Source of the DNA: Candidatus Aminicenantes bacterium
GTDB lineage: Bacteria > Acidobacteriota > Aminicenantia > S016-38
Direction of reading: 5' to 3'
NCBI GenBank assembly: GCA_026987025.1
Contig: JALSNJ010000040.1
Coordinates: 166,713 to 230,712, forward strand
Length of the DNA: 64,000 nucleotides
Under the pieces are notes generated by a model. It was not told the DNA's origin, made no database searches, and was given only the letters and a program-made list of their open reading frames with translations. The position numbers were made by a program, and so were the translations under genes. Below, one piece after another: positions 7,538 to 56,676 of this stretch. Within the stretch, counting starts at the first letter, position 1, and every line of letters begins with the position of its first letter.

Positions 7538-7548
7538 GCTCTACCTCC

Positions 7549-9781: not shown

Positions 9782-12135
9782 TTTCCTTCGTCCTGAAAGA
9801 GGGAATCCCAGAGGTCAGAATTTCCCCGAAGGTATTTTTCAAACCAGCCCATTATGGCCATATACCATCCTATTCTGTGCTTGTATCCCATAACCCAGTG
9901 GTTTTCTCCCTTTACAAGAACCAGGGCCACCGGCCTTTTAAGGAGTTCCAGGGCGGTAAACATCCGATGGCTTTCTCCTGGAGGCACATTGGTGTCGCTG
10001 GTCCCGTGAAGAAGGAGCAGGGGAGTTTTTATCCTGTGGGCGAAGAACAGGGGGGAGCGGTCCACATATATGTCCTTCCTGTTCCAGGGGAAGGAAAAGG
10101 CGGCGGAAATGGCGTTGTAGGTGTAACCCCAGTAACCTTCCCCCCAATAGGAGGGGATCATGCTTATGCCTGCGTGGGAGACTGCGGCGTCAAAAAAGTC
10201 GGTTTTCGTAACCAGGTATTGCGTCATAAAACCTCCGAAGGAAGCCCCTATGATTCCCTTCCTATCCACCCAGGGATGTTTCTTTACAAATCTTTTGCTG
10301 GCCTCAAGGATTATTTTCCCCGAAAGCTTCCCCCAATCGTTTACATGTTTTGCAGAGTACCACTGCCCGAAGCCCGTGGCTCCTGGAGGGGTCAGGGTGT
10401 AGACCACAAAGCCCTTGGCTGCCCACCATTCCTTGGGATATCTTCCGGCGAAGTCCCTGGTAATGGGGGAAGTGCCTCCGTAGTAGTAAATAATAAGGGG
10501 GTATTTCTTTGCCGGGTCAAAATCCGGAGGATAGTAGATTCTCCCTTTAACGGGGTATTTTCCTATCTTTAAATCCCAATCCTCCACCTTCCCCCACCTG
10601 ACCGAGGAGTATTTTTCCCAGGCCGGGAATAGGCGGAGGAGGACCTTTCCTTCTTTCGTCACCAACAGCCGATGCGGAAGATTTACCCCCGTGACTATAA
10701 CCGATATTACCCCTGAAGGAGAGACCCGAAGGTTCCTTACGACCTCACCCTCTAAGGGAATCTCCTTTATGACCCCGCTCTCTGCCCGATAAAGACGGAC
10801 ATAGGTTTTATCCTCAGCAGTAAAAACAATGTTTTTATTGTCCATCCAGTAGGCTGAAAGAACCGAGGGAGAGAATTCCTTAGTTAGGCACTCCACCTTC
10901 CGGGAGCCCAGATGGTATATCATAAGCTCTCCATCGTAGTCGTTGGGAATTTCCCCTTTCCCTAATCTTGAACATAATCCGGAAAAGGAGGAGGGTCCGC
11001 CTAAGAGCAGAAGTCTTTTCCCGTCGGGAGCCCATTTAACCGAGTTTATCCAGGGGTCCTTTACGATGTCCTGGATTTTTCCGGTTTCCAGGTCCAGCAA
11101 CTGATATTTGTTCAAAAGGTATGGTCTTCTGTTGGGGTCAAAATAGGTGTAGGAGAGAAGGAGGGTTTTTCCGTCGGGGCTCAGCTCTAAAGGTTGGGCC
11201 TCGGTGGTTATAAGCTTTCTGTCCATTGCGCTTTCAGGCCAGAATATGTGTATTTCGTTTTTACCTCCCCATCCCCTCTGGCGGTATGCAGGGTCCTTTA
11301 CCCTGTTGAGGCCGAACTCGTTGTATTCCTTTCTTTTACGATGAACCGTGTAAAGGAGGAAACTTCCGTCCCTGCTCCAAAGGTATGAGGAGAGGTTCTT
11401 GACCTCTAAAAGCTTCCTGTTTTTCCCCTCCACATCCGCTATCCACAGAGAATCTTTGAGCTTGTAGGAAATCTGATGATGGCCTGGTCTCCAGCGGGGA
11501 AGGCTGATTTTGAAGCCCCTGAAGGAGCGCAGCACCCTTCCTTCCTTCAGGGAATAGACCTCATACCATCTTTCCTCCTTGCCCTGCAAGTTCCAATTTC
11601 TGAGTTCCACCAGAAGGAATTTCCCGTCCCCGGAGGGAAGCCCCCTTTCCACCCTTAAGGAGTTCATGAGTTCCCAAAGGGAGAGGCTGTGTTCCGGGAA
11701 AAGGGAAGTGGAAAAATCCCCTGAGACCTTCAACCGGATTTCCCCTTCCTCCGGGCTTTCTACCCTTATAAGGAGGAAATGTTTTCCCTTTTCAAGGAGA
11801 CGGCAGGCCTTCATTTCTTTGCCCTGGCCCAGGGCCTGGCCGTCTAAGGAAACCTCTGCAGGAGCGCTGGATGAAATCCTTATTTTTTTCTTTCCCCAGT
11901 CGGTTATCAAATACAGAGCAAAATAGTGCACGGTGTGAGGCTCCGTTTTTATAAATGAGGGCGTTCTTTTCCATCGGAGGGAGAGGGCAGGGGAAACCCT
12001 CACCTCCTTTTCTTCCACTGCCGAGAAGGGTTCTATCTTGAGCGAGCTTCCCCGGGGCAGGGGACCGAGGTGGAGAAACTCCGCAGAGAAGCTCAGGGAT
12101 AGGAGCAAAAGAAACAAAACGGCCTTTCTCGTCAT
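9778..12135 (-). CDS. Secreted S9-family serine peptidase (prolyl oligopeptidase / acylaminoacyl-peptidase type) with N-terminal beta-propeller
   Basis: Signal peptide. WD40/TolB-like propeller repeats (SPDGK, APDGK). C-terminal alpha/beta-hydrolase with nucleophile elbow GASFGGFMT and HGTSDTNVPP. Confidence 0.85.
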   Translation of the reverse strand: MTRKAVLFLLLLSLSFSAEFLHLGPLPRGSSLKIEPFSAVEEKEVRVSPALSLRWKRTPSFIKTEPHTVHYFALYLITDWGKKKIRISSSAPAEVSLDGQALGQGKEMKACRLLEKGKHFLLIRVESPEEGEIRLKVSGDFSTSLFPEHSLSLWELMNSLRVERGLPSGDGKFLLVELRNWNLQGKEERWYEVYSLKEGRVLRSFRGFKISLPRWRPGHHQISYKLKDSLWIADVEGKNRKLLEVKNLSSYLWSRDGSFLLYTVHRKRKEYNEFGLNRVKDPAYRQRGWGGKNEIHIFWPESAMDRKLITTEAQPLELSPDGKTLLLSYTYFDPNRRPYLLNKYQLLDLETGKIQDIVKDPWINSVKWAPDGKRLLLLGGPSSFSGLCSRLGKGEIPNDYDGELMIYHLGSRKVECLTKEFSPSVLSAYWMDNKNIVFTAEDKTYVRLYRAESGVIKEIPLEGEVVRNLRVSPSGVISVIVTGVNLPHRLLVTKEGKVLLRLFPAWEKYSSVRWGKVEDWDLKIGKYPVKGRIYYPPDFDPAKKYPLIIYYYGGTSPITRDFAGRYPKEWWAAKGFVVYTLTPPGATGFGQWYSAKHVNDWGKLSGKIILEASKRFVKKHPWVDRKGIIGASFGGFMTQYLVTKTDFFDAAVSHAGISMIPSYWGEGYWGYTYNAISAAFSFPWNRKDIYVDRSPLFFAHRIKTPLLLLHGTSDTNVPPGESHRMFTALELLKRPVALVLVKGENHWVMGYKHRIGWYMAIMGWFEKYLRGNSDLWDSLFQDEGK

Positions 12136-12183
12136 CTTTGACCTCCGGAAAAATTTTAATATAATTTCTATCGGGAGGGAAAA

Positions 12184-12543
12184 ATGAAAAACAAGGGAAG
12201 TTCCACTTTCTTTAACCTTATTCTACTGGCCCTTATCGGTTATGGGGTATATGTGGCCTATGTTTACGGAAAAATGGAGATAGATAGAAGGGCTTTGATT
12301 TCCGATATTACCGATGCCATAGCAGGAAGGGATGAGCTGAGCGTTTCCCAGCTCAGGGAAAGGCTTATGGAGCTGGCGGAGGCGAAGAATCTGGACATAG
12401 ACCCGGACTCCGTATATATAAACAAAACCAGGGAGACCATCCATGTGGAGTTCACCTACTATGTGGAGAAAAACATGCTCTTCTGGCGTCTTCAAAAGGA
12501 AATCTTCATCAATCTGGACCTGCCGGCGGTGGCTGGTTTATGA
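12184..12543 (+). CDS. Small membrane-anchored hypothetical protein
   Basis: N-terminal TM helix FFNLILLALIGYGVYVAYVY. Good RBS. Stop overlaps the histidine-kinase start (ATGA). Confidence 0.4.
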   Translation: MKNKGSSTFFNLILLALIGYGVYVAYVYGKMEIDRRALISDITDAIAGRDELSVSQLRERLMELAEAKNLDIDPDSVYINKTRETIHVEFTYYVEKNMLFWRLQKEIFINLDLPAVAGL

Positions 12544-14819
12544 AGGAACATCTCCTTTCCCTGCTTACCATATCCTTAAACAAGCCCTTTGAAGAGGCGG
12601 CGGGGGAGTTTCTCTCAAGGGTTAGCGATTATTTCAAGGCCAAGGGCTATTCCTTAATTATAGTATTCAACCCCGAGGAACCCTTTGTGTTTCTTTCCCG
12701 GGGGATCTCCGATGACTACAGAAGATTCGTCCAGGAGAGGATGGAGGAACTTCCCGGGAGGTTCTCTTACCTGCAGGGAGAAATTTTGACCTTCCCGGAT
12801 GTCAGGAAGATTACCCCGGAAAAGGTCAGGGAGGCTCTTTTGAAGGAGGGAATTCTTTCCTACATAACGGTTCCCCTGGGATGGGAAGGGAAGCTCTTCG
12901 GTATCCTTACCCTTTATTTCCCCAAGAAGAGAAAGTTTAAAAGGAAATTCCTGGAGGAGATGAAGGCCTTGGCCTCGGTTTTCTCCTCATATCTTAACAA
13001 TTATTTCCTTTTCTCCACCCTGATGGAGAGAGAAAAAACCTTAAATACCATATTTGAAAGCTCCCCGGCTGCCATATTCGTGGTGCAGGATATGAAGTTT
13101 AAGGTGGTGAACCCTGCCTTCCAGAGGATAACCGGATATTCTTCTGAGGAGGCTAAAAATTTGTTCTTCTGGGAAATCGTTCATCCAGACCAGCAGGAGG
13201 AGGTTAAGGAGAGGGGAATAAGGAGGGAGAGGGGGGAAAGGGTCCAGCCGGAGCTTTACGAGATGAAAATAGTGGACAAGGAGGGCCGTCAAAAATGGGT
13301 GCTTTTCAGGGGCACTCCCATAAAGTTTCGGGGAAGGCCTGCCAACCTGGGGATAGCCTTTGATATAACGGAGAAGAAGGAGTTGGAAGATAAATTAACT
13401 TCCCTGGAGGAAAACCTCAAGGCCATTTACGAGGCCTCTGTCATGGGTATATACCTATTTGACCTGGAAAAGGGGATATACGAAATGGTAAATCCCCAGG
13501 GGAAAAAATTGCTGGGCATGGACCTTGAGGGGAAAAGACCGGAGGAGGTCTTTCCTCCGGAGGAGGTGGAAAGGATAAATGAGATCCTCAATTACATAAA
13601 GAAAACCAAGAAAACCCTTACCACCGTGGAGAAGTACCATACGGGTCTGGGAGAGAGGTTCATATTCGTCAGCAGGGCCCCGGTCTTCGGAAGCGACGGA
13701 AAGGTGAAGAAAGTGGTGGGTATATTCCGGGATATAACCGAAGAGGAGAGGGCCAAGCAGGAGTGGGAGAAAAGGGCCGATTTTTCCATGATGGAAAGGC
13801 TCATAGAGGTGGTGGCCAAGGAGCTCAACAACATTCTGAGCATAATCCTGGCCACTTCGGAAATAGGTCTGGAATCGGGCATTGACGAGACTACCTGGAG
13901 GAGAATAAACCAGAAGGCCAAGGAGGCCCAGAACTTTATCTACCAGCTCATGGAGATAGGAAGGGGAGGAGGCGGGGGTAAAACCACCGTGGAACTCAAC
14001 GAGTTCGTGAAGGAAAACATCCTCCTTTTGAGGTCCATGCTGCCCGGAAGGATAGGGCTCAGGTTCAATCCATGGCAGTTGCCCCTCTACACCTCATGCA
14101 ATCCTTCCGCCCTGAGAACTGCCCTTTCTCACCTGGTTCTAAACGCCAAGGAGGCCATAGAGGAGGAAGGGGAAATTGAAATAAACCTCGGAAAGGAGCA
14201 AAATTACGCCGTCTTAGAGGTTAAGGATACGGGGAGGGGAATGAGCGAGGGGGAAATTTCCAGGGCCTTTGAACCCTTCTTCTCCACCAAATCCCTTGAG
14301 GAAAACCCGGGGCTCGGATTGACCTTCGTCAAAAAGTTCGTGGAGAAGTTAGGAGGGGAAATCCAGCTCCACAGCTCGTCGGGAAAGGGTACCTCCGTTA
14401 TTTTAAAATTTCCCCTTAGTCCGGAGCCCCCGAAGGAGGCTAAGGAGATAGTTAAAAAAGCCTCCGGCGCAGAGATTCTCCTGGTGGAGGACGACCCTGA
14501 TGTCAGGAAGGTGGAACAGGAACTTCTTACCGTTTTGGGTTATAAAGTGATGGAGGCCTCCTCTGCCAGACAGGCCCTGGAAATAATAAGGGAAAAACCT
14601 CCATCCATAGTGGTTACCGACCTGTCCATGCCGGAGATGGGGGGAGCCCAGCTGGCCCAGGAAATAAAGAAAATAACCCCTTCCGTTAAAGTTCTTCTTA
14701 TAAGCGGATATGTAAGCGAAGACGAGCTGGAAAAATTCAAAAATATGGGCATAGACGGGGTTCTTCACAAACCCTTTGGACTGGAAGAACTGAAAAAGGC
14801 CCTGCGGGAACTCTCTTGA
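12540..14819 (+). CDS. Hybrid sensor histidine kinase / response regulator with PAS domains
   Basis: PAS-like modules, a HisKA-like dimerisation region, HATPase_c motifs (LEVKDTGRGMSEGE…GLGLTFVKKFVEKLGGEIQL), and a C-terminal receiver (ILLVEDDPDVRKV…VTDLSMPEMGG). Confidence 0.85.
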   Translation: MKEHLLSLLTISLNKPFEEAAGEFLSRVSDYFKAKGYSLIIVFNPEEPFVFLSRGISDDYRRFVQERMEELPGRFSYLQGEILTFPDVRKITPEKVREALLKEGILSYITVPLGWEGKLFGILTLYFPKKRKFKRKFLEEMKALASVFSSYLNNYFLFSTLMEREKTLNTIFESSPAAIFVVQDMKFKVVNPAFQRITGYSSEEAKNLFFWEIVHPDQQEEVKERGIRRERGERVQPELYEMKIVDKEGRQKWVLFRGTPIKFRGRPANLGIAFDITEKKELEDKLTSLEENLKAIYEASVMGIYLFDLEKGIYEMVNPQGKKLLGMDLEGKRPEEVFPPEEVERINEILNYIKKTKKTLTTVEKYHTGLGERFIFVSRAPVFGSDGKVKKVVGIFRDITEEERAKQEWEKRADFSMMERLIEVVAKELNNILSIILATSEIGLESGIDETTWRRINQKAKEAQNFIYQLMEIGRGGGGGKTTVELNEFVKENILLLRSMLPGRIGLRFNPWQLPLYTSCNPSALRTALSHLVLNAKEAIEEEGEIEINLGKEQNYAVLEVKDTGRGMSEGEISRAFEPFFSTKSLEENPGLGLTFVKKFVEKLGGEIQLHSSSGKGTSVILKFPLSPEPPKEAKEIVKKASGAEILLVEDDPDVRKVEQELLTVLGYKVMEASSARQALEIIREKPPSIVVTDLSMPEMGGAQLAQEIKKITPSVKVLLISGYVSEDELEKFKNMGIDGVLHKPFGLEELKKALRELS

Positions 14820-37993: not shown

Positions 37994-38854
37994 TTGAGAA
38001 AAATCCTTATCTTAACCCTGATCCCCCTTTTCCTTCTATCCTCAGATTTCAAGAAGGAGAAGGAGAAGGTCTTTGACGAGCTCATGCTCATAATGACCAA
38101 GCAGGAGAAAAAGGAGTTCAAAAAAATAGACAGCCAGGAGGAGCTTCGCAAGTTCGTGGAGGATTTCTGGAGGAGGAGGGACCCTGACCCTTCCGACGAA
38201 AGGAACGAGGTTAAGGAGACTTACTACAAGAGGATGGAAGAAACAAAGCGACTTTTCCGGGAGCCCGGAAGGAAGCCCTGGCTCACGGACCGGGGTAGAG
38301 TTTACATGATCCTGGGAAGGCCCACCTTCTGGAAAAAGGAGGTGATGCAGAAGGGCACCACGGAAAATTACGAGCGCTGGGATTACGAGGACCTCCATCT
38401 GGTAATTTTCTTCGTGGATAGACATGGAATGGGAAAGTACGAGCTTTCCCAGCCCAGCCCGAAGTTCATAGATATTTACGAGCACGAGAGGAAGTTTTTC
38501 CTTCCCAGAGCAACTAAAGTCTCCATGACCCTTTCGGTGGAAATAGATAGAAAGGCCAAAAAACTGTACATCCACATACCCTTAAATTCCTTTGCCTTTA
38601 CTAAAAAGGAAGGGAAGTTCTACGCCAATTTCCTCCTTCGCTTCTCCTACGGCCATCCCCAGGAGGCCCAGCCCAGGACCTTTGAGCAGAAGATGAGCGT
38701 GGGGGTTTCAGCTAAGGATATAAAGGCAGGGAACAAGGAGATCACCATCCCCCTTTCCATAGCTCCCCTCAAGGGGGAATATGTGATAATAATAGAAATA
38801 GAGGACCTTGTATCCGGCAACAAGGTCTCCAAAACCTATAAATTGAAGATTTAA
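37994..38854 (+). CDS. GWxTD-domain secreted protein (putative)
   Basis: Signal peptide. KPWLTDRGRVYMILGRP matches the GWxTD motif (GWxTDRG…Y…GxP). Confidence 0.45.
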   Translation: MRKILILTLIPLFLLSSDFKKEKEKVFDELMLIMTKQEKKEFKKIDSQEELRKFVEDFWRRRDPDPSDERNEVKETYYKRMEETKRLFREPGRKPWLTDRGRVYMILGRPTFWKKEVMQKGTTENYERWDYEDLHLVIFFVDRHGMGKYELSQPSPKFIDIYEHERKFFLPRATKVSMTLSVEIDRKAKKLYIHIPLNSFAFTKKEGKFYANFLLRFSYGHPQEAQPRTFEQKMSVGVSAKDIKAGNKEITIPLSIAPLKGEYVIIIEIEDLVSGNKVSKTYKLKI

Positions 38855-42475: not shown

Positions 42476-44969
<2,494 letters not shown>

Positions 44970-44970
<1 letters not shown>

Positions 44971-45041
44971 GCGGGCGACGGGACTCGAACCCGCAACCAC
45001 GAGCTTGGGAAGCTCGCACTCTGCCATTGAGTTACGCCCGC
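44970..45041 (-). tRNA. tRNA-Gly (anticodon CCC)
   Basis: Reverse complement GCGGGCGTAACTCAATGGCAGAGTGCGAGCTTCCCAAGCTCGTGGTTGCGGGTTCGAGTCCCGTCGCCCGC. Anticodon loop TTCCCAA. Abuts the symporter stop codon. Confidence 0.8.
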
Positions 45042-45431: not shown

Positions 45432-47501
45432 TCACATAATTGTTACATCCTCTATCCTCACCGGGGAGGAAAAGACTATCTTAACCCTGTTGGAATTCCG
45501 TTCCAGGGGGGATTTTCTAAAATCAAGGAGGATTTCTTTCATACCCCCTATTTTTCTCTCCAGCAGGAACCTTCCGTTCAGGTAAACCCTTATCTTCCCC
45601 TGGAAGGCCCTTTTGAGAATCAAGTGCAACTTCTTCCTTCTCAGGTGAAAGGTGGAGTACCTCCTTACCAGCACCCTTACGGGCTCCCTTTCTATCACCT
45701 TTATCAGGGTAAATTTTTCCGTTTCCTTGAGGACCACCCCGTATTTTCTAATTTCTTTAACCCTCCTTTTAAGAAGTTCCTTCCACTCCTGGTTCTTAAT
45801 CAGGTCCCAATGGATTATGATGAAATTGACGGAGTAATTTCTGAGAAACCACCTTAAGTTTCTGTCCACCAGGAATTTTTTTGAATTGGCCCTTCCCCTG
45901 GCCTTTGGGTAATCCTGCGGATAGAAGGCGGCCCTTCCGTTTATTAAATAGTTCCAGTGAACTCTGGAATAAAAATTGTAAAGGTTGTTTCTCGGGGCCA
46001 GGAGCCCCCGATAAAAGGGAATCTCAAGTATAACCCTGTTTTCCTCCCTGGGGAGGTAATGGTAAACCTGGGGTGGGGACGGGAATTTCCTATAAAAGCC
46101 CGCCTCCGGATAGTAATTTTCCAGAAAAATCAAAGGGAAAAGCAGGCAGAGGAATGCGGTTTTCCTGCCGGGGGAGTTTATTTTGCCCAGAAGGTATTTG
46201 AAGCCTTCTATGGAGAAGTAGAGCAGTAGAGGATAAAGAAGCAGATACGACCTGGTGGGTGCCCTCAGTCCTTTCATGCCCGGAATGATAGAGGAAATTG
46301 CATAATATGGGGAAAACTTTATAGATGGGGCTAATGTAGAGAAATTGAAGAAAATGCAGGAGTATAAGATGGTGGTGAGGAGGAAGATTCTTTCCATAGG
46401 GGATAGGGCTTTCCTTTTAAATATAATGTGAAGGCTTTTGCCAATAAGCAGGATGAAAATAACCCTTGTCAGGGCAAGGTTTCCCAGAATCAGGGAAAGA
46501 ATGAGCAAAAGCCATACGAAGATGGAAAGGAAAGGCCCTCTTCTTAAATCCCTGAAGAGGAAGGATATGACCCCCAGCGTCAAAAACATCCCCAGGGAAA
46601 GAGGATAGGTTCCCCTCCTGAAAAAAGGGGCGTAGATTTTAAAGGCGAGCCAGGAATTATTGACCAGTAGGTTTTTTAGCCCCACCAGGTGGGAAAGGGG
46701 AATTAGCCTTTCGGTTCCGCTTCTGCGAAAGACTATTAAATACGGGTAAAAAACGGCGAGGATGGCCAGGGAGGTAAGGGCAAAGGTTCCCAGAGTCTTC
46801 AAAAAATCCCTCCCCCTTAACTCCCCCTCAAGCAGGAGCGCTGCAAGGAAGATGGGCAGGAAAAGGCCCAGGAGGTAGGTGCCCATGTAGGTGCTGAAGA
46901 AAAAGACTAAAAACCCCCAGAATCCCGTAAGTAGCAAGAAAAGCTCCCTTTTGGTTTTCAAATACTTTACGAAGAAAAATAGGAAAAGGGGTATGAGGGT
47001 GTGGGAGAGGATGTTTATGTGGACGAAGTTCACATAATTGGATGTGGCAAAGGCATAGGCGGTGGAGAAAAGGGCTGCCATTTCCCGATTTTCCGTTAAT
47101 TCCCTCAGAAGGAGAAAACTTCCCCACATGCCCACGAAGAGGAAAAACAAAATCAAAAAATTGTATATGATGTGGGGATTATCGGTCATAAGGCCTATGG
47201 GAAGGGCCAGGAAGGCGTGTCCCAAAAGATGGTGGGTGTAAAAGGTAGCATAACTGTTAGGGTAAAAGAAGTTCATGTGCCATAGATTGTAGAATCTGAG
47301 GTGTTTTATCTGATGTATGTGCCAATCTATGATGCTCATGATCAAAAGGGAATCCCTGTTTCCTCCGTAGGGGCTCCTGGAGGTAAATTTCAATATGAGC
47401 AGGGGATGGGAGAGGAGGAGCACCAGGGCAAAGAAGAGAAGTATCTTCCACCGGCCTTCGGCTTTAGCCGTGAGCTCACGGCTTTTTCCTGGGCTTTTCA
47501 A
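45432..47501 (-). CDS. Large polytopic membrane protein (YfhO-like / putative GT-C glycosyltransferase) with a C-terminal soluble domain
   Basis: 689 aa. About 14 TM helices in the first 440 aa, then a ~250-aa hydrophilic Lys/Arg-rich tail. The 4-nt start/stop overlap with the upstream mosaic gene shows co-transcription. Confidence 0.4.
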   Translation of the reverse strand: MKSPGKSRELTAKAEGRWKILLFFALVLLLSHPLLILKFTSRSPYGGNRDSLLIMSIIDWHIHQIKHLRFYNLWHMNFFYPNSYATFYTHHLLGHAFLALPIGLMTDNPHIIYNFLILFFLFVGMWGSFLLLRELTENREMAALFSTAYAFATSNYVNFVHINILSHTLIPLFLFFFVKYLKTKRELFLLLTGFWGFLVFFFSTYMGTYLLGLFLPIFLAALLLEGELRGRDFLKTLGTFALTSLAILAVFYPYLIVFRRSGTERLIPLSHLVGLKNLLVNNSWLAFKIYAPFFRRGTYPLSLGMFLTLGVISFLFRDLRRGPFLSIFVWLLLILSLILGNLALTRVIFILLIGKSLHIIFKRKALSPMERIFLLTTILYSCIFFNFSTLAPSIKFSPYYAISSIIPGMKGLRAPTRSYLLLYPLLLYFSIEGFKYLLGKINSPGRKTAFLCLLFPLIFLENYYPEAGFYRKFPSPPQVYHYLPREENRVILEIPFYRGLLAPRNNLYNFYSRVHWNYLINGRAAFYPQDYPKARGRANSKKFLVDRNLRWFLRNYSVNFIIIHWDLIKNQEWKELLKRRVKEIRKYGVVLKETEKFTLIKVIEREPVRVLVRRYSTFHLRRKKLHLILKRAFQGKIRVYLNGRFLLERKIGGMKEILLDFRKSPLERNSNRVKIVFSSPVRIEDVTIM

Positions 47502-48910
47502 CGGAGGATTGGTTTTCTCTTTGGGCGGGAGGGTCCGGGTCTTTCAGCAGGGCGGGGGGGCGATTTGAAGGGGAAGAAAGGCCGCCCTGAAAGGCCAGGG
47601 CCCTTTGTGGCTCTTGCTGAAGCCGGCGAAGGGCTCAGAACCACGCCCTCTCCACCATATTTATATGGTGTTCTATACTCAACAAGACCTGGAATTACAA
47701 CATAGTCTGTTCCATTCCTTTTTTTAAAGAATATATAAGCAGCTCTGAATTCTCTTTTACCAGGAACATAATGACCACCACCATACATACTATCTAATAA
47801 TCCTGTTGTAATATCATCATCACCACCTGGAAAAATAAAACCCTTCATTATCTCTTGGATTGTCATTCTTATGTTTCCTGCCGGTGACCTTGCTCTTGCG
47901 CTCTTTAATTCAAATGTTCTATCATCTACTGTTCTCATAGCACCTCCTATATCACTTTCCATATACTTAAGTATACCATCTTCTAGATCATCATTATCAC
48001 TTACATCAATCTTATTATCTTGAATAACACCAAAGCTTAACTTAGATACTAAGTCTGTTAATATCTCTCTTATTGTTGTTTTAACCAACACACCACTCTT
48101 TGGGTCTGTTCCAAAAGGGGCTATATTTAATAATTCTTTATTAGGATAAACCTCAATCTCAAGATCATTACCTGGTTTTGCAGATGCATAATATGCTTCA
48201 TTTGTAATCTCACTATAAGAAAAGTAAGCAGCAGCAGATTGTTTAATTCTAAAATTATTTCTTGTATCAAATATATTTTCAGGGACATAGCTGTCAATAG
48301 TTACTTCAAACACAGAATTATCTTTAAACTCAGGTGTATCCATTACTTCACCCATAAGTTCTTTTTTTATTCTTTTATTTGGTTTATCAGGAGATACATT
48401 AACCCATATTGTATAATCACCTTCTTTAAGCATAGGTGATTCTAATTCTACAATACCTTTACTGTTTGTTGTTCCTTGAGCTATTATCTCATTGCTATTA
48501 TCTTTTGTAATATAAACCTTAACACCACTAAAATCATTTATTCTTTCAAAGGTTATTGGTTCTCCTGTCTTCCATCTCGTTATGCTTGGAAAATTCTTAT
48601 ATGCATCCTCCAGCTTGACTTTAACCTTAATAGGCCTTGGCTCATGGGGAGTTTGTTTCTTCCCTGGGGAGGAAAGAAGGTAGAGGGCGGCTCCCGCCCC
48701 TAAGAGAACAGCACCTCCCAGAAGGTAGACCCATCCCCTTCGGTGTTTTTTCCCCTCCACAGCCACAGCCCCGGAGGGGACCCCGGCCCGGGAGGCCCTT
48801 CCGTAGGAGGGGCCAAGCAGCAGAAGAAGGCAGAGGAGGGAAACCAGAAGGCGGCTCGCCCACCGGCGGTGGCCCTTCGCCGAAAAAGCCCTGTCCTTCC
48901 GCTGGAGCAT
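47498..48910 (-). CDS. Membrane-anchored/secreted protein with a compositionally foreign (AT-rich) core domain; function unknown
   Basis: SD GGAGGTGA 4 nt before the ATG. N-terminal hydrophobic anchor VYLLGGAVLLGAGAALYLL. The core (~47690-48645) is ~30% GC and uninterrupted in-frame. A carboxypeptidase-regulatory/transthyretin-like beta motif (GEPITFERINDFSGVKVYITKDNSNEIIAQGTTNSKGIVELE…GDYTIWV) and a Pro/Arg-rich tail. Confidence 0.5.
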   Translation of the reverse strand: MLQRKDRAFSAKGHRRWASRLLVSLLCLLLLLGPSYGRASRAGVPSGAVAVEGKKHRRGWVYLLGGAVLLGAGAALYLLSSPGKKQTPHEPRPIKVKVKLEDAYKNFPSITRWKTGEPITFERINDFSGVKVYITKDNSNEIIAQGTTNSKGIVELESPMLKEGDYTIWVNVSPDKPNKRIKKELMGEVMDTPEFKDNSVFEVTIDSYVPENIFDTRNNFRIKQSAAAYFSYSEITNEAYYASAKPGNDLEIEVYPNKELLNIAPFGTDPKSGVLVKTTIREILTDLVSKLSFGVIQDNKIDVSDNDDLEDGILKYMESDIGGAMRTVDDRTFELKSARARSPAGNIRMTIQEIMKGFIFPGGDDDITTGLLDSMYGGGHYVPGKREFRAAYIFFKKRNGTDYVVIPGLVEYRTPYKYGGEGVVLSPSPASARATKGPGLSGRPFFPFKSPPRPAERPGPSRPKRKPILR

Positions 48911-48927
48911 CCTTCACCTCCGGGGAA

Positions 48928-48958
48928 ATTCTAAACCCCTCCGCCCAGGGATGTCAAG
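48928..48958 (-). promoter_or_regulatory. Sigma70-like promoter for the mosaic gene
   Basis: On the minus strand: TTGACA (48958-48953), a 19-nt spacer, then TAGAAT (48933-48928), then SD and ATG at 48910. Confidence 0.35.
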
Positions 48959-49004: not shown

Positions 49005-50588
49005 TCAAACTGAAAAACGCAGGGAAAAGGTGGAAGGACCTTTAATCGGAACCCTTAAACGGGGGGCCCCATGGGACTTTATGAAATCTATTTCCCTTCT
49101 GCAGCCCGGCGGGAGTTCCATCCTGAGGATGGTTCCTTCCCTTTTCATTTCTACCAGATCCTCCACCAGGGAAAGGGAGGTGCCGGGAAAAAGCACGGCG
49201 TTCCACAGGAATTTTCCCTCCAGCACCTCTATTTGAACCTTGAAGCCTCCTTTTTCTCTTATTATCTTCAGCTCCCCTGCCCCGGTGGCCCCGGAGGTTA
49301 TCTTTCCCCTGAAGGAGTCTCTATCGCAGGATATCAGCTTGAAGTCCATTCCCTCCCCTTCCCCCCAGAGACCTGTGCTCTTTTCTTTATCGCCCTTGTC
49401 AACGAGGGATAGAATCTGATAGCCGTCAGCCATTACTACCATGGAGAAGGCCTGGTCAGGGGATGTGGGGCTATGGCTTAAAATTATCTTAAGATTCCGG
49501 TGATGAAGGGTGGCGAAGGAGGCCTCCGCTGAGCAAAAGCCCCGGGGCTCAAAGGAGCCCGCCAGGGGTTTTACGAAGACTTCCACCCCTTCCACCGGCC
49601 GGGTCCCCACCTTGGAGCTCTGGTGGAAGGAACAGAGCAGTGAGATCAGGAACTCCGGATTTCTGGTGAATAAGTGCAAAGGAAGAAGATAATAACCCTC
49701 CTTTCCTCCTATGTACGGCAGGCCATCTCTGGAGTTTATCTCCATCAAAATTCTGGCCGCCGCCTCCATCTTGTCCCACGCCTCTCCTATGAGGTACTTA
49801 TTCTTGGCCAGAAGAAGGGTGGAGTAAAGGGAGGCCTCAAAGAAGGAAAGGTGTTCCTCCACCGACCTTCCTTTGTAGAAGCCCTCTTTGTCGGTTTCTT
49901 TGTGAAGGAAGGAGATGAATTCCTCCAGGAACTGGTCAAAATCAGGGGCTGGCATGGAGAATTTTCTTAGGAATACCCCCGAGAAGATCAGGGAGGGGAG
50001 CCTGAGAACCCTGAGCCATCCCCGGGGATTTACTTCCTGCCTTATGAACAGGTAGTGTTGAAGGATGGAGGCTGCTAATTTCCGGAGATTTTTCTCATCC
50101 TTAGAAAATTCCTCCTTCAGGGCATCGTAAAGCAGGGGAAAAACCACGGCCCTGGTCATTACGGCCCTTTCGCTCTTCCAGCCTATTCCCCGCAGGGGCG
50201 GGTTTTTGTCTATCCATCCGATGAGGGTGGAGACCGTTTTTTTGTATAAATTTCCGTCGCCTTTGTACAAGTAGGAAAGGGCAGGGAGGAGCAACCAGGA
50301 AAAACCTGTAAGGACTTCGGCGTCCCCCGGGCATCCTCCCTTTTTAAGGCAGGATTGTGAGGGAAGGGGAAGCTTTCCTGTAAAGGGAAGGGCAATTTTA
50401 TTGGACAGGAATTCTTCCCTGGCCCTGCGGATGAAAGGGGGCTCTTCTTTGTCGGGACGGCGGAGTAGGAAGTTAAACTTAAGGGGAAAAATGGGTTTTG
50501 CCTCCTTAGCCTCCGCCCTGAGCCATTTTTCTTTTTTAGAAGGAACCAGGCTTTTTAAGTCAATCATTGCCTTTTTATGATAAAACAA
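49005..50588 (-). CDS. Heparinase II/III-like protein (putative polysaccharide lyase / glycan-modifying enzyme)
   Basis: 527 aa. Alpha-helical toroid-like N-terminal half and beta-rich C-terminal half. Resembles the heparinase II/III family proteins common in O-antigen/capsule loci. The call is tentative. Confidence 0.35.
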   Translation of the reverse strand: MFYHKKAMIDLKSLVPSKKEKWLRAEAKEAKPIFPLKFNFLLRRPDKEEPPFIRRAREEFLSNKIALPFTGKLPLPSQSCLKKGGCPGDAEVLTGFSWLLLPALSYLYKGDGNLYKKTVSTLIGWIDKNPPLRGIGWKSERAVMTRAVVFPLLYDALKEEFSKDEKNLRKLAASILQHYLFIRQEVNPRGWLRVLRLPSLIFSGVFLRKFSMPAPDFDQFLEEFISFLHKETDKEGFYKGRSVEEHLSFFEASLYSTLLLAKNKYLIGEAWDKMEAAARILMEINSRDGLPYIGGKEGYYLLPLHLFTRNPEFLISLLCSFHQSSKVGTRPVEGVEVFVKPLAGSFEPRGFCSAEASFATLHHRNLKIILSHSPTSPDQAFSMVVMADGYQILSLVDKGDKEKSTGLWGEGEGMDFKLISCDRDSFRGKITSGATGAGELKIIREKGGFKVQIEVLEGKFLWNAVLFPGTSLSLVEDLVEMKREGTILRMELPPGCRREIDFIKSHGAPRLRVPIKGPSTFSLRFSV

Positions 50589-50591
50589 AAA

Positions 50592-52313
50592 TCACCAGTT
50601 TCCAAAAACTTTCACACCCAGAACCCTTCTGTCTTTGCTTGCGAGAACCCTGGCCGGCACAAAAGTGGGGTGAACCCTGAGCTCCAGGAATCCCCTTCCC
50701 GTTATCCTCAATTCAACCCTCCTTTGAGCCGGGCTGAATACGACTGTCTTCAGCTTTTTTCCTCTCCAGAAGACCTCCGCCCTCTGGAAGGGTATTCCGG
50801 TTTCCTCAAAGGGAAAGGCGGACTCCAGAACCAGGGGCTTTTTAAAAGAAAAGTAAATTCCGGCTTCGCCAGCGCTCCAGCGGAACCTACCTTCCCGGCC
50901 ATAGAGGCCGTAGAAGTACGGTTTCCCCTTCTTCAAACACCAGTGGGCTGGATGCAATTTCTGGAAGGATAGAAGGCCCCCGAGGATGAAGAACAGAGAT
51001 AGGATAATGGGTAGTGCCCTGGGAAGTTTTATCTTCGCGGGGGTGAGCTTGCTCAAAAGGAAGAAAAACAAGAGGATAACCTCTGGATTCCAGAGGACGC
51101 TGTGCACGAGGAAGGCTATCAAGAACAGCACAAAAACCCTCTTTTCAGGGCCGGGCCTTGCCAGGAGGAAGGGGACGAGAAAGACCACGAAGGCGATGAG
51201 CCCGACGAGACCCAGCTCGGCGGCTACCCCGAGATAAACCGATGGGACCACATCGTTGACCTTAGGGTGGTCGTATTCTGCCATTACGAAGAATATGAAA
51301 TTCCCCGGGCCCACTCCGGAGAGGGGAGCCTCCCTCAAAGCCCTCAGTGCCCTGGAATAGAGGAAGTTTCTCCCTTCGGTCAGGAGGGTTAAATTTCCCG
51401 GGTTTCTGGCGTATTTCCCCATTCTTTTCCACAGGTGAGGCAGGGAGAGAAGGAGGAAAAACAAAAGAAGGGAGAAGTATTTAAACTTGAATTTCCCCAC
51501 TTTTTTCCTGTCCAGGGCAAAAAAGACAAGGGCTAAAACCATCATGAGGAGGCCCGTTCTGGAGGAGGAAAGAACCAGCACGCCCAGGGGAGGGAGGGAC
51601 CAGAGGGCCTCTTTGAATGTGTTTGACCTCAGGAGAATCCAGGAGAAAAGGGCCGCCGAAAATATCCCTGCGGCGTTGGGGTCCGAGAAGGTGCCGTTGA
51701 ACCGGTGAATCCATCTCCAGGGGCCGGAGGGGAGGAAAAATGGCCCTGCGAATTTCTGCACCAGGGCCGCGGCCAGGGGGATGATGGTGGCGGCGGAAAG
51801 AACCCTCAGCCCTTCCTCAACCTTTACCCTTTTAAAAAAGAGGTATCCCAAAGGGCCTGCCGTGTAGAGAAGGAGGGTTGTGGCCAGGAGCAGGACCCCA
51901 AAGGAAAAGCGGGGACCTCCGGGAGCCACCGGGGTATCCTTTAAAAAGGCCAGGGGAGAGAGGGTCAAATTGGACCAGCGAAGCAGAAGGAAGAAGGCCC
52001 CAAGCCATATTAAAATGAGAAAGGGAGAGTAATAGGGCACATTTAATTTTTCCCGCCGCTGAGCCAGGAGGTATCCTGCCACCGGATATATGGAAAAACC
52101 CAGATAATTGAAGGGAATTTCCACCGGAAGGAACCAGGCCAAGGCGTTTACCAGGGGAACCAGGAACAGTGGTAAGTAAGGAGCCCTTCGGGTTAAGGTT
52201 CCGGCCAGGAAACCTGTGAGAAAAAGCCCCAGAAAGAACGGGAGGGCACCCAGCCGGGAGAAGGCCCAGATGTGGAGAAGGAAGGCCAAGGCCGCAGCTA
52301 TTTCAAAGCTCAA
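50592..52313 (-). CDS. O-antigen ligase / polymerase-like (Wzy_C-type) membrane protein with a C-terminal periplasmic extension
   Basis: Twelve predicted TMs with a large loop (…SSSRTGLLMMVLALVFFAL…) typical of WaaL/Wzy_C proteins, plus a ~150-aa C-terminal soluble domain. Confidence 0.5.
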   Translation of the reverse strand: MSFEIAAALAFLLHIWAFSRLGALPFFLGLFLTGFLAGTLTRRAPYLPLFLVPLVNALAWFLPVEIPFNYLGFSIYPVAGYLLAQRREKLNVPYYSPFLILIWLGAFFLLLRWSNLTLSPLAFLKDTPVAPGGPRFSFGVLLLATTLLLYTAGPLGYLFFKRVKVEEGLRVLSAATIIPLAAALVQKFAGPFFLPSGPWRWIHRFNGTFSDPNAAGIFSAALFSWILLRSNTFKEALWSLPPLGVLVLSSSRTGLLMMVLALVFFALDRKKVGKFKFKYFSLLLFFLLLSLPHLWKRMGKYARNPGNLTLLTEGRNFLYSRALRALREAPLSGVGPGNFIFFVMAEYDHPKVNDVVPSVYLGVAAELGLVGLIAFVVFLVPFLLARPGPEKRVFVLFLIAFLVHSVLWNPEVILLFFFLLSKLTPAKIKLPRALPIILSLFFILGGLLSFQKLHPAHWCLKKGKPYFYGLYGREGRFRWSAGEAGIYFSFKKPLVLESAFPFEETGIPFQRAEVFWRGKKLKTVVFSPAQRRVELRITGRGFLELRVHPTFVPARVLASKDRRVLGVKVFGNW

Positions 52314-53499: not shown

Positions 53500-56400
53500 G
53501 TGGACTATATGAGAAAATTCTTAGCCCTTTTAATCCTTCCGGTACTGCTTCTGGCGGGCACCAGGCTTTTAAGGATGCCACATATCAGCGGGGACAAAAT
53601 CGTTTTCTCCTATCAGGGGGATATCTGGATAGCCCCGGCCTCCGGGGGCAGGGCCCACAAACTCACCTCTTATCCTGGCTTTGAGTCCTACCCGAGGTTT
53701 TCCCCCGACGGGAAATATGTGGCCTTTACCGGTCAATATCAGGGAGGGGTGGATGTTTATGTGGTGCCCTTGAGCGGAGGGGATCCGGTTAAACTTACCT
53801 ATCATCCGGGGTGGGAAGAGGTGGTGGGGTGGACCCCCGATGGAAGGGTGGTTTTCGTCTCCGACAGGGAAGCCATATTCCCCACAGCCACGGCCTTTTA
53901 CTCGGTGGACCTGAAGGGGGGTTTTCCGGAGAAGCTGCCCATTGATAGGGGCAGTTTCATAGACTTTTCCCCCGACGGAAGGTATGCCGTCTTCAACAGG
54001 AACAGCGGTTATTTCTGGTGGTGGAAGAGGTATAAGGGCAGCGCCAACCTGGATGTCTGGATTGTGGACCTGAAGAAAAGAAAATTCCGCAGGCTCACCT
54101 CCTGGAAGGGAAACGATGCCTGGCCCATGTGGGGAGCGGATGGAAGGGTTTACTTCGTATCGGAAAGGGACGGTATAGCCAACCTTTATTCCCTGGACCC
54201 CATGGCCAAAAATCCTGCCTCCACCATAAAAAAACACACTAATTTCAAGGAGGACGGCATCCAGTGGCCCTCCATTTCCACCGAAAGGGACAGAATAGCC
54301 TTTGAGCAGAACGGAGAGATTTATGTGTATTACATAAGAAGCGGCAGGCTGGTTAAGCTGGACATCCAGGCCAGAGGGGACCTTCCCTTTCCCTTAAAGG
54401 AGGTTACCAATCCCCAAAAGCTCCTGGGTTCCTTTTCACTTTCCCCCGGCGGAAAAAGGCTGGCTTTGGAAGCCAGGGGGGAGATATTCTCGGTGCCCAG
54501 GAAATACGGCCCCACCAGAAACCTTACCCGCAGTCCCAGAAGGGATAGGGACCCGGCCTGGTCCCCGGACGGAAAATTCGTTGCCTTCGTCTCCGACCGG
54601 GACGGGGAGGAGCAGCTCTATCTTGCGGAGGAGAAAACCGGAAAGTTGAACAGGCTCACCCGCATCCCCCTGTTCAAGAAGCACCCGCTCTGGTCCCCGG
54701 ATGGGCAGAAGATAGCCTTTGCCACCAACGATGGGGGAATCCACATAGTATTTGTGAAGGATAAAAGGACCCTCCTGGTGGACAAAAACCCCACGGGGAT
54801 GAGCCTTGACTACAGCTGGTCTCCGGACAGCAATTTCTTGGCTTATACAAAGAGGGGGAGAAATGGATTGGGGGATATTTTCGTCTACAACCTCAAAGAG
54901 AGGAAGAGCTACAGGTTGATATCCTCCTCCTTTGACGACTTCAGCCCTTCCTTCACTCCGGATGGGAAGAGGCTTATCTACCTATCCATGGATGTAATAA
55001 AGCCCTCCTTTGACTTCTTTGCGGAGATGATAACGGTCAGGGGAGGAACCAGGATTATGAGCGTGGACCTGGTGCCAGGGCTTGCAAACATTTACGAACC
55101 GCAGCCCGACGAGGTGGAGGTAAAGCGGGAAGGGAAAAAAGGAAAAGGGAAGGCGGAAGAGAAGAAAAAAGGCGTTCAGGTTAGGATAGTTTTTCAGGGC
55201 ATAACCGAAAGGATAAGAGCGGTTCCCGTGCCCGCTGGCCAATATTACACCCTGGCGGCGGTGGGGAATTACTACATCTTCTGGGACTACAAGGAGAAGG
55301 CCCTTAAGGCCTACAATATTAAGTCCAGAAAAACCGAAACCTTCGTGAAGGGGATAGAGGGCTACGACATATCCCCCGATGGTAAATTCATCGCTTACAG
55401 AAAGGGAAAGAAAATTGCCATAGCCAGGCTGGGCAAAGTCTCCAGGGACGAGTTCGTTTCCCTTCAGGGATTGAGGATGGAGCTGGACAGGCTGGCGGAG
55501 TGGAGGCAAATCTTTGACGAGGCCTGGCGAATGGTGAAGGACTACTTCTACGACAAGAACCTTCACGGCGTGGATTGGAAGAAGGTAAGGAAGCATTACG
55601 AGGCCCTTCTTCCCTATGTAAGGACCCGTCAGGAGCTCAACATGCTGCTGGAGGAAATGGTGGGGGAGCTCAACGCCTCCCACCAGGGGGCCAGGGGCGG
55701 CGACTTCGGGGTGAAACTTCCCAGGTACAATGTGGGTTTCCTGGGGGTTAAATTCTCCCCTGACCGCTCCAGGGGGCTTTACCGGATTGTCCACATATAC
55801 GCCCACGACCCCGATGTCAGGGCCTTCCACAACCCCGCCTCTGGACTTTTAAAGGAAGGGGAATACATATTGAAGATCGGAGGTCAGCCGGTTTCCGCAT
55901 CCAAGAACATTTACTCCTACCTGGTGGGTTATGCCGGAAAGGAGGTGGAACTTGAGGTTTCCCCGGATGGTAGCAAAGAAAGGGCCAGGAAGGTGATAAT
56001 AAAGGCCATCTCCTCCGAGGCCATGCTCATCTACCACGACTGGGTGGAGAGGAATCGCAGGTATGTGGAGGAGAAAAGCGGAGGAAAAATCGGCTACATC
56101 CACCTCCACGACATGGTGAACTTCGGAATGAGTCAGTTCCTGCGCTGGATAAACGCCTATCGCTATAAGGAGGCCATAATCATAGATGTAAGATTTAACG
56201 GTGGAGGGGGAATTGACCCCTACCTCATAGACATTTTAGAGAGGAGGCCGTATCAGACGGTGAAGGGAAGGAACCAGATAGCGGTGGAAAGGCCCATGGG
56301 AGGATTTTACGGTCATGTGGCCGTTCTAATAAACCAGTTCTCCTATTCCGATGCGGAGGTCTTTCCTGCCGCCTTTAAGGCAAGAAAACTCGGCACCCTC

Positions 56401-56676
56401 ATAGGCGTTCCCACCTTGGGCTTCGTCATAGCCGTCACCTCCTATCCCATGATAGACGGAGGATATGTAAGGAGGACAAGTTGGGGTCTCTGGGAGCTCA
56501 GCGGTGAGATGCTTGAAGGAAGGGGAGCCATACCCGATATCTATGTGGAAAATCCGCCGGAGGCCGTCCTGGCCGGGAAGGACCCCCAGCTGGATAGGGC
56601 CATAGATTATCTTCTGAAGCAGATAAAGGAACATCCCAGAAGGGAGTATCCAAGGCACTACTTCAAAAAACACTGA
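53500..56676 (+). CDS. Tricorn-protease-like protein (tandem beta-propellers, PDZ, S41 C-terminal peptidase)
   Basis: 1058 aa. Signal peptide. Repeated TolB/WD40-like blades (SPDGKYVAF, SPDGRYAVF, SPDGKFVAF, SPDGQKIAF). A PDZ-like segment (ILKIGGQPV). A C-terminal S41 domain (IIDVRFNGGGGIDPYLID…). Confidence 0.75.
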   Translation: MDYMRKFLALLILPVLLLAGTRLLRMPHISGDKIVFSYQGDIWIAPASGGRAHKLTSYPGFESYPRFSPDGKYVAFTGQYQGGVDVYVVPLSGGDPVKLTYHPGWEEVVGWTPDGRVVFVSDREAIFPTATAFYSVDLKGGFPEKLPIDRGSFIDFSPDGRYAVFNRNSGYFWWWKRYKGSANLDVWIVDLKKRKFRRLTSWKGNDAWPMWGADGRVYFVSERDGIANLYSLDPMAKNPASTIKKHTNFKEDGIQWPSISTERDRIAFEQNGEIYVYYIRSGRLVKLDIQARGDLPFPLKEVTNPQKLLGSFSLSPGGKRLALEARGEIFSVPRKYGPTRNLTRSPRRDRDPAWSPDGKFVAFVSDRDGEEQLYLAEEKTGKLNRLTRIPLFKKHPLWSPDGQKIAFATNDGGIHIVFVKDKRTLLVDKNPTGMSLDYSWSPDSNFLAYTKRGRNGLGDIFVYNLKERKSYRLISSSFDDFSPSFTPDGKRLIYLSMDVIKPSFDFFAEMITVRGGTRIMSVDLVPGLANIYEPQPDEVEVKREGKKGKGKAEEKKKGVQVRIVFQGITERIRAVPVPAGQYYTLAAVGNYYIFWDYKEKALKAYNIKSRKTETFVKGIEGYDISPDGKFIAYRKGKKIAIARLGKVSRDEFVSLQGLRMELDRLAEWRQIFDEAWRMVKDYFYDKNLHGVDWKKVRKHYEALLPYVRTRQELNMLLEEMVGELNASHQGARGGDFGVKLPRYNVGFLGVKFSPDRSRGLYRIVHIYAHDPDVRAFHNPASGLLKEGEYILKIGGQPVSASKNIYSYLVGYAGKEVELEVSPDGSKERARKVIIKAISSEAMLIYHDWVERNRRYVEEKSGGKIGYIHLHDMVNFGMSQFLRWINAYRYKEAIIIDVRFNGGGGIDPYLIDILERRPYQTVKGRNQIAVERPMGGFYGHVAVLINQFSYSDAEVFPAAFKARKLGTLIGVPTLGFVIAVTSYPMIDGGYVRRTSWGLWELSGEMLEGRGAIPDIYVENPPEAVLAGKDPQLDRAIDYLLKQIKEHPRREYPRHYFKKH

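Follow-up and report, generated by a model that had tools for sequence, protein, structure and literature searches.

A low-GC block fused in frame within a host-type open reading frame of an Aminicenantes bacterium, probably a recently transferred gene fragment

How does a sharply bounded AT-rich stretch come to lie, in frame, inside a single open reading frame (ORF) with GC-rich ends? The question is raised by P0001, a 470-aa ORF on the minus strand of a 64,000-nt stretch of DNA from a Candidatus Aminicenantes bacterium (contig JALSNJ010000040.1, positions 166,713 to 230,712). This entire stretch is referred to as the window, and coordinates are positions in it except where another contig is named (for the features, see Table 1). 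A previous reading of the same DNA (the original prediction) had proposed that the middle of this ORF was acquired from a low-GC donor. The analysis described below makes it probable that the ORF arose by the recent transfer of a gene fragment from such a donor, which was fused in frame into a host gene in a surface-glycan operon.

Composition and codon usage within the ORF

The G+C (GC) content in sliding 200-bp segments along the ORF was 0.56-0.65 at both ends and 0.28-0.36 in the middle. The two changepoints assigned by maximum likelihood with a two-breakpoint model (47657 and 48632) delimit a block of 976 bp with 31.8% GC. The window as a whole has 50.7% GC; 950-bp segments outside the region have a standard deviation of 2.4%, and the lowest value found elsewhere is 42.4%. 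The GC content at the third codon position (GC3) was 0.69 for codons 1-90, 0.18 for codons 91-415, and 0.51 for codons 416-470, and the contents at the first and second positions (GC1 and GC2) also drop to low-GC values in the block. For the 46 other ORFs of the window with 150 aa or more, including the genes immediately upstream and downstream, GC3 was 0.54-0.70. The block contains no stop codon in the frame of the ORF and 12-60 stops in the other five frames, whereas 2000 shuffles of the block gave a mean of 30 stops per frame with a minimum of 14. Thus, the block is genuine coding sequence, as had been claimed, and the anomaly is far beyond chance.

Codon choice was evaluated with a log-likelihood ratio (LLR) calculated from synonymous codons only, so that the amino-acid content cannot drive the score; the codon tables were made from 44 host genes of the window and from 23 genes of two contigs with ~32% GC. 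The score per codon was +0.33 to +0.69 for host genes, +0.67 for codons 1-101 of the ORF, -0.75 for the block, and +0.2 to +0.3 for the tail. The sharp AT-rich block in frame that the original prediction described is therefore seen with four measures (sliding GC, changepoints, GC3, and synonymous LLR), and the distinct codon dialect attributed to it is a difference from the host in synonymous choice, beyond amino-acid content. In GC, GC3, and synonymous LLR, the block has the composition by which horizontally acquired DNA is defined, and the ORF is a mosaic (chimeric) gene: host-type codons 1-84 and foreign-type codons 102-420 lie in one ORF of 470 codons.

Sharp compositional junctions would also be expected if reads of a low-GC organism had been misjoined into the host contig, which the original prediction had taken as the null hypothesis. 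Records of the identical protein exist in NCBI, JGI, ENA, Logan, and GEM sources, and exact-protein look-ups list 4-5 contigs with P0001 (14 kb to 300 kb), two of which were retrieved. The match to the window has 100% identity along 21.4 kb for the ENA MEGAHIT contig (300 kb) and along 14.3 kb for the Logan contig (14 kb), both junctions being included in each case and the gene order being the same in both. For an assembly chimera, two misjoins must have been made 1 kb apart, with an exact return to the host contig and an in-frame join with an open tail, and the same error must recur base for base in two pipelines (ENA MEGAHIT k141 and Logan). The contigs from JGI and NCBI (not retrieved) are also listed with the identical protein, and no repeat able to mislead a de Bruijn graph is present at the junctions. 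This contrary evidence is at the level of contigs, not of reads; with two separately assembled contigs matching the window exactly, we regard a chimeric assembly as extremely unlikely.

The gene might also be an old resident one, in which selection or local mutation bias (expression control, avoidance of RNA structure) has kept AT-rich codons in the core. Surface-glycan loci are often below the average in GC, which favours this explanation, and there are no relatives by which the age could be measured. However, the operon neighbours, including the Wzy_C protein gene and the gene of a 689-aa membrane protein, have host GC3 values (0.60-0.66), the switch occurs inside one ORF within ~50 nt per end, GC1 and GC2 are shifted as well, and homologues are found only in ~32% GC genomes (see below). 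An old resident gene is thus given only a very small probability.

Relatives of the block and its two domains

Residues 91-415 were compared exhaustively with 1.84 billion cluster representatives by HMMER, and four non-self matches (P0002, P0003, P0004, and P0005) were obtained. P0002, matched along residues 160-405 (E 1.2e-8; in pairwise BLASTP, E 1e-17 with 29% identity), was the sole full-length relative in this search. The Ig-repeat surface proteins P0003 (Big_1-repeat, E 7.5e-8) and P0005 (E 1.9e-4) match only aa ~119-176, and P0004, a repeat-rich protein, is matched in a short part of the query only. P0029, an intact protein of 402 aa with a lipoprotein-type N-terminus, and its near-identical cluster-mate P0030 were then added by a profile search. 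Three full-length relatives, in two 90% clusters (P0002; P0029 with P0030), were thereby detected among roughly 15 billion proteins. A word-indexed search of 5.8 billion proteins with full P0001 as the query returned only P0001 itself, and no match was obtained for the block with blastn against phage genomes or for the family profile against viral contigs; against JGI metagenome contigs, the profile found the contig of P0029 again and no others.

The N-terminus of P0029, MKKNFYYFAFLLFVLILFFNLSC-KK, is a lipoprotein-type signal (...FNLSC). On contig L003 (JGI 3300021467, Ga0190334_1000515), a gene is interrupted by a one-base frameshift near position 9935, and P0002 is its 3' portion; when the frameshift is bridged, the N-terminus MKSRGYLVSFVLIVGVLVFSSSC-KK (...VFSSSC) is recovered, followed by the same beta-sandwich. 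When joined, the 91-aa and 294-aa ORFs at positions 9765-10885 of L003 make a protein of ~373 aa collinear with P0029. The frameshift may be due to an error of sequencing, or the gene may truly be a pseudogene. The contigs of P0002 and P0029 have 30-35% GC throughout, the GC3 of their genes is ~0.27, and that of the homologues themselves is 0.19-0.33. Thus, the family is compositionally at home in genomes of ~32% GC, the same GC as that of the block. The sole homologues of the block being at home in such genomes (the host has no close relative in the collections searched), a low-GC donor is the best explanation, and the acquisition proposed in the original prediction is supported by this as well as by the codon break. 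Since compositional amelioration is entirely absent, the event would be evolutionarily recent.

In the three-way alignment, homology extends from aa ~95 to ~410 of P0001 and from aa ~38 to ~300 of P0029; that is, it begins near the end of the relatives' signal peptide and stops short of their C-terminus. From these limits, P0001 holds the mature part of the protein, without the donor-type signal peptide, the lipobox Cys, and the last ~60-100 residues. The family, made up of uncharacterised probable lipoproteins with three known members and no Pfam or NCBIfam model, shares the two-domain architecture and ~70 invariant positions with the core of P0001. P0001 differs from it in the host-coded ends, which stand in place of the lipoprotein signal Cys and the C-terminal region, and the identity is ~30%.

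For the first domain (aa ~119-176), the original prediction had noted a transthyretin/CarbopepD-like beta motif. The family profile matched a collagen-adhesin domain in PDB (6fwv, E 2.6e-4) in this stretch, and this match and the HMMER matches described above point weakly to such a fold; the Pfam matches (bMG3, Big_1, Big_13, and CarboxypepD_reg) were all sub-threshold, the best being bMG3 with 17.4 bits against a cut-off of 34.9. The pattern GTTNSKG-IVEL...GDYTIWV resembles that of Cna-B/prealbumin-like domains (transthyretin-like, CarboxypepD_reg, and Big), with scores from sub-threshold to modest. Unlike in those proteins, the beta-sandwich of P0001 is single and not tandem, no isopeptide or sortase features were seen, and no Pfam gathering threshold was reached.

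The second domain (~230 aa) carries conserved acidic and basic motifs, and the motifs SD.G.A, ARAP.G.I, GGDD, DS..G, and RN..DY.V are invariant in the family. Searches of the block against Pfam, NCBIfam, PHROGs, and PADLOC gave nothing above the threshold, and a sequence search of PDB with the protein gave no match; the second domain had no match in any of these collections. AlphaFold2 was run twice with a 4-sequence alignment (with P0001 first and with P0029 first); the mean predicted local distance difference test score was 35 in both runs, and the models were unusable.

Outside the window, the P0002 gene adjoins a Transposase_31 gene. On contig L094 (JGI 3300026531, Ga0256835_1000226; positions 7592-13280), P0029 immediately follows GT2 and GT4 glycosyltransferase genes and precedes a YafQ-type toxin pair and an IS110 transposase gene. 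Two of the three family loci (the window and that of P0029) are thus beside glycan-synthesis genes. Since the relatives carry lipoprotein signals, the beta-sandwich is adhesin-like, and glycan genes are found at these two loci, we suggest, with low confidence, that P0001 may work at the envelope in binding or processing the glycan made by the neighbouring genes. It would be bolder to suppose that the ~230-aa domain is a new fold of a tiny, mobile, glycan-associated family of envelope lipoproteins moving between phyla as a domain-sized module, or that the host anchor and tail are a scaffold recruiting exchangeable foreign ectodomains; taken together, these two ideas are improbable.

As side observations, the glycan-gene neighbourhood of P0029 parallels that in the window, and on L003 (positions 6468-10885; contig ~31% GC) the homologue and two neighbours have GC3 values of 0.11-0.19 against the usual ~0.28 of the contig. 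One of the neighbours encodes a Cys-rich secreted protein of 360 aa, and the Transposase_31 (Rpn-like) gene is among them. The family member on L003 may itself lie in an acquired islet.

Ends, junctions and origin of the chimeric gene

The original prediction had described both ends of the ORF as native-looking. This holds for the N-terminal segment, which uses host codons: its correct frame is the best of six by the host codon table, yet it lies at the 5th percentile of true host chunks. The N-terminus is basic (net +6) and is followed by a very hydrophobic, signal-peptide-like stretch of 13 residues (aa 21-33), a basic loop (net +5), and a transmembrane-like stretch of 19-22 residues (aa 59-80). 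These two are the only hydrophobic segments of P0001, and the side of the membrane on which the core lies would be set by the number of them that insert (one or both). An Lpp-type lipoprotein signal was not found: LLSSPGKK occupies the position aligned to the relatives' lipobox, and the sole N-terminal Cys (position 27) lies in LLCLL, which is not a lipobox. The promoter and the Shine-Dalgarno sequence that had been reported upstream are both present, as pattern matches. AT-rich foreign DNA frequently makes spurious intragenic promoters; a second near-consensus sigma-70-like match, TTGACA-16-TATATT, was noted inside the block at 48270-48297 (minus strand).

The other end does not look like native coding sequence in any frame. 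The tail consists of the C-terminal 35-50 residues, rich in Pro, Arg, Ser, and Gly, and it is similar to what is obtained when host DNA from other parts of the window is translated out of frame. We read it as a read-through into host sequence that had not earlier been translated in that frame. Two further elements lie in the region coding for the tail, a 7-bp GC-rich hairpin (GCCCTGG CCTT TCAGGGC; 47584-47601, minus strand) and an 18-nt imperfect inverted repeat (47530-47604); these may be left over from a 3' region that was once non-coding.

The GC-rich ends were also considered as a diverged signal peptide and C-terminus of the family itself, that is, of a resident copy in which the core was replaced, and this was rejected. 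Local alignments of the ends with the termini of P0029 and P0002 did not score above those of shuffles (p 0.15-0.2); one N-terminal comparison reached p 0.02, but it overlaps the uncertain junction zone. Thus, there is no evidence that an older resident member of the family was overwritten.

By synonymous likelihood, the 5' breakpoint fits codon 85 or codon 102 equally (48658..48607) and the 3' breakpoint fits codon 420 or codon 435 equally (47651..47606). The boundaries are therefore sharp, as had been described, but "within about 10 nt" was too tight, the resolution being ~50 nt per end; the low edge previously placed at 47690 sits 40-85 nt inside the block, and the edge is at ~47651 or possibly at 47606. 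The flanks have 62-64% GC, at the upper end of the host range for stretches of similar size. No significant direct or inverted repeats or target-site duplications bracketing the block were found, nor were paralogues of the flanks inside the window or homologues of the flanks in protein searches.

These observations bear on the original suggestion of a polymorphic, exchangeable ectodomain, in which the anchor and tail of the host would be fixed and foreign domains would be swapped between strains as cassettes. The constant ends and foreign middle fit such a cassette, as do the surface-glycan context and the mobile-element genes that adjoin the family elsewhere. However, no alternative alleles were seen: the protein is identical in every contig found, and the two retrieved contigs agree exactly with the window. 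Silent cassettes, flanking repeats, or a recombinase were not seen either, the flanks have no homologues found, and their similarity to the termini of the family is not significant. Neither does the locus have the features of an integron or site-specific cassette, as bracketing repeats are absent and there is no integrase or transposase among the called genes within ±10 kb. We therefore consider an exchangeable cassette very improbable.

The recent transfer of a fragment is the reading that we prefer, with fair assurance, and its course may be envisaged as follows. About 0.96-1.05 kb of donor DNA (around 30% GC or lower) would have been joined, as an insertion or in place of an earlier domain, without homology and by illegitimate recombination, to a host gene or its 3' region in the surface-glycan operon of an uncultured bacterium with ~51% GC. 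The inserted DNA would encode the mature part of a rare envelope lipoprotein family, lacking the signal peptide and the C-terminal ~60-100 residues. Transcription and translation would start on host signals (the promoter-like site, the Shine-Dalgarno sequence, and the host-coded basic N-terminus with its two hydrophobic segments), and translation would run in frame through the foreign beta-sandwich and the ~230-aa domain and end in the Pro/Arg tail of 35-50 residues, with the stop of the chimera overlapping the start of the next gene. The product would presumably be exported or anchored by its host-coded N-terminus and have its role at the cell envelope, where it might act upon, or together with, the glycan of the neighbouring genes. 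Both the direction and the mechanism of the transfer are proposed here on the grounds of composition and homology.

The same transfer might instead have produced a non-functional accident, a young fused pseudogene awaiting decay. The fragment would then have come down in a small host gene for a membrane protein, or in the 3' region of that gene, and the ORF would be open only because the donor sequence already had an open frame, the 5' join fell in frame (a 1-in-3 chance), and stops are scarce in GC-rich host DNA. The tail, non-coding-like in any frame in the manner of out-of-frame host translations, is in accord with an accident, as are the two hydrophobic segments with the +5 loop (an awkward topology for an ectodomain) and the absence of the donor lipobox and C-terminal ~60-100 residues; the lack of amelioration also implies little time for selection. 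On the other hand, a promoter-like site, a strong Shine-Dalgarno sequence, and a stop/start overlap with the next gene are in place, the core keeps all of the family-invariant motifs, and the same sequence is present in both retrieved contigs, although none of these is proof of function. An accident of this kind is unlikely in our judgement but deserves real consideration.

Several points weigh against the transfer of a functional domain as outlined above. A two-pass topology would leave a domain derived from an exported lipoprotein in the cytoplasm, and the chimera may be non-functional. By the host codon table, none of the six frames of the tail scores as coding. The donor itself is unsampled, the relatives sharing only ~30% identity with the block. 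We infer the pre-insertion state and the direction of transfer for a host with no close relative in the collections searched. Finally, the assemblies may share sequencing libraries, and the support for the junctions is at the contig level only.

In polymorphic toxins of the Rhs/CdiA type with low-GC C-terminal tips, a sharp in-frame drop in GC marks a horizontally exchanged module on the conserved, host-type part. P0001 is similar in having a sharp in-frame GC drop inside an ORF, whereas its block is central and not C-terminal. No RHS/YD or filamentous-haemagglutinin repeats, VENN or PxxxxDPxGL motif, toxin domain, or immunity gene were found with Pfam and PADLOC, the next gene encodes the 689-aa host-type membrane protein, and no alternative tips or orphan cassettes were seen; P0001 is thus not a toxin of this type. 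A closer parallel is the fragmentary lateral genetic transfer described by Chan, Beiko, Darling & Ragan (2009), who found within-ORF recombination breakpoints in 19.6% of 1,462 orthologue sets (PMC2817436). The likeness is in the breakpoint inside an ORF and the foreign origin of part of the gene. Those cases are mostly homologous replacements between orthologues, whereas the gene in the window has no detectable resident homologue, its donor and recipient are ~20% GC apart, and the host sequence joined to the fragment is unrelated to it; illegitimate recombination and gene fusion are thereby indicated.

Within-gene lateral transfer being well documented (PMC2817436), the kind of event is already known and no new mechanism is revealed. 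Less usual are the size of the GC gap, the lack of a resident homologue, and the fusion to unrelated host sequence. The locus would be an unusually clean natural case in which a gene fragment, not a whole gene, moved across a gap of ~20% GC, was captured in frame downstream of the host's signals for expression and targeting, and can be observed before any amelioration. As such, it would show one route to new domain combinations in envelope proteins, and it draws attention to a protein family that is essentially unsampled and to a host lineage that is likewise unsampled.

Gene neighbourhood and host lineage

The features of the ORF and its surroundings are listed in Table 1.

Table 1. Positions of the features of the chimeric ORF and of neighbouring genes in the 64,000-nt window
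Feature	Position	Strand	Basis or remark
Chimeric ORF P0001, 470 aa	47498..48910	-	ATG at 48910 after Shine-Dalgarno; TGA overlaps TTG of next gene
Sigma-70-like promoter match, TTGACA-18-TAGAAT (11/12)	48928..48957	-	Pattern match only; in 94-nt spacer of host composition upstream of ORF
Shine-Dalgarno-like GGAGGTGA	48914..48921	-	Pattern match only; ends 3 nt before ATG
Host-type N-terminal segment, codons 1-84	48659..48910	-	Synonymous LLR, best-of-six frame, hydropathy/charge
5' junction zone, codons 85-101	48607..48658	-	Mixed codon choice; GC changepoint 48632
Foreign low-GC block, codons 102-420 (minimal extent)	47651..48606	-	~32% GC, GC3 ~0.18; homologous to mature part of P0029/P0002
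Prealbumin/Cna-B/Big-like beta-sandwich, aa ~119-176	48383..48556	-	HMMER, family profile, sub-threshold Pfam
Unrecognised ~230-aa domain, aa ~177-410	47681..48382	-	Family alignments
3' junction zone, codons 421-435	47606..47650	-	Mixed codon choice; GC changepoint 47657
Pro/Arg-rich tail	47498..47605	-	~62% GC, host-like; non-coding-like in six frames; TGA overlaps TTG of 689-aa gene (47498-47501)
Wzy_C (O-antigen ligase/polymerase-like) membrane protein	50592..52313	-	PF04932, E 4.5e-13
527-aa upstream gene	49005..50588	-	Host codon usage; no match in family searches
689-aa multi-pass membrane protein, downstream	45432..47501	-	Host codon usage; distant homologues with DUF6311 or PTPS_related (GT-C-like)
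tRNA-Gly(CCC)	44969..45041	-	3' end abuts SDF transporter gene; cluster on 5' side

The chimera belongs to a string of genes on the same strand that encode, in order, an ODP-domain protein, the Wzy_C protein, the 527-aa protein, the chimera, and the 689-aa membrane protein. The glycan/cell-envelope cluster of the original prediction is therefore present, with Wzy_C two genes upstream of the chimera. Apart from the block, codon usage is of the host type in every gene of the cluster; the foreign part is the block and not the cluster. The tRNA-Gly gene that had been called adjacent does exist, but it lies 2.4 kb away with a host-type gene in between and with the cluster on its 5' side. This position and the host-type genes of the cluster, save the block, differ from what is expected of a tRNA-associated genomic island. 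The called genes of the ±10-kb flanks included no integrase, and Rfam detected nothing but the tRNA.

A search with the 689-aa neighbour against 185,579 species-representative genomes and JGI metagenome contigs gave no match. Its best protein homologues (48-50% identity) are from organisms of ~42% GC and have another gene context; thus, they are not positional orthologues. The closest homologue on a large contig (48% identity) was found at positions 10001-12076 of contig L004 (ENA ERZ27262658, k141_221091). The GC content there is 31-36%, against ~43% for the contig, and the gene context is unrelated, with a Cupin_5 gene upstream and a gene for a 422-aa Gly/Ser/Lys-rich protein downstream. The 689-aa family may also be mobile, or its composition, rich in F, L, I, N, and K, may simply lower the GC.

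For the host enolase (42488-43768), the best identity was 59-66% among the matches listed from the 185,579 species representatives, and the top matches among those listed were scattered across many phyla (Spirochaetales, Bacillota, Acidobacteriota, Planctomycetota, and others). At 90% identity, the host enolase and tyrosyl-tRNA synthetase (TyrRS) each form a cluster of one, and when three host proteins were looked up by exact sequence, no strain but this one was obtained. The host thus appears, as far as these protein comparisons indicate, to represent a deeply unsampled lineage.

The region is flanked by a Tricorn-protease-like gene of 1058 aa (53500-56676, plus strand) and a GWxTD-domain gene (37994-38854, plus strand). 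Note that the public call of the Tricorn-like gene is 1055 aa, against the 1058-aa ORF delimited here, the start codons being different.

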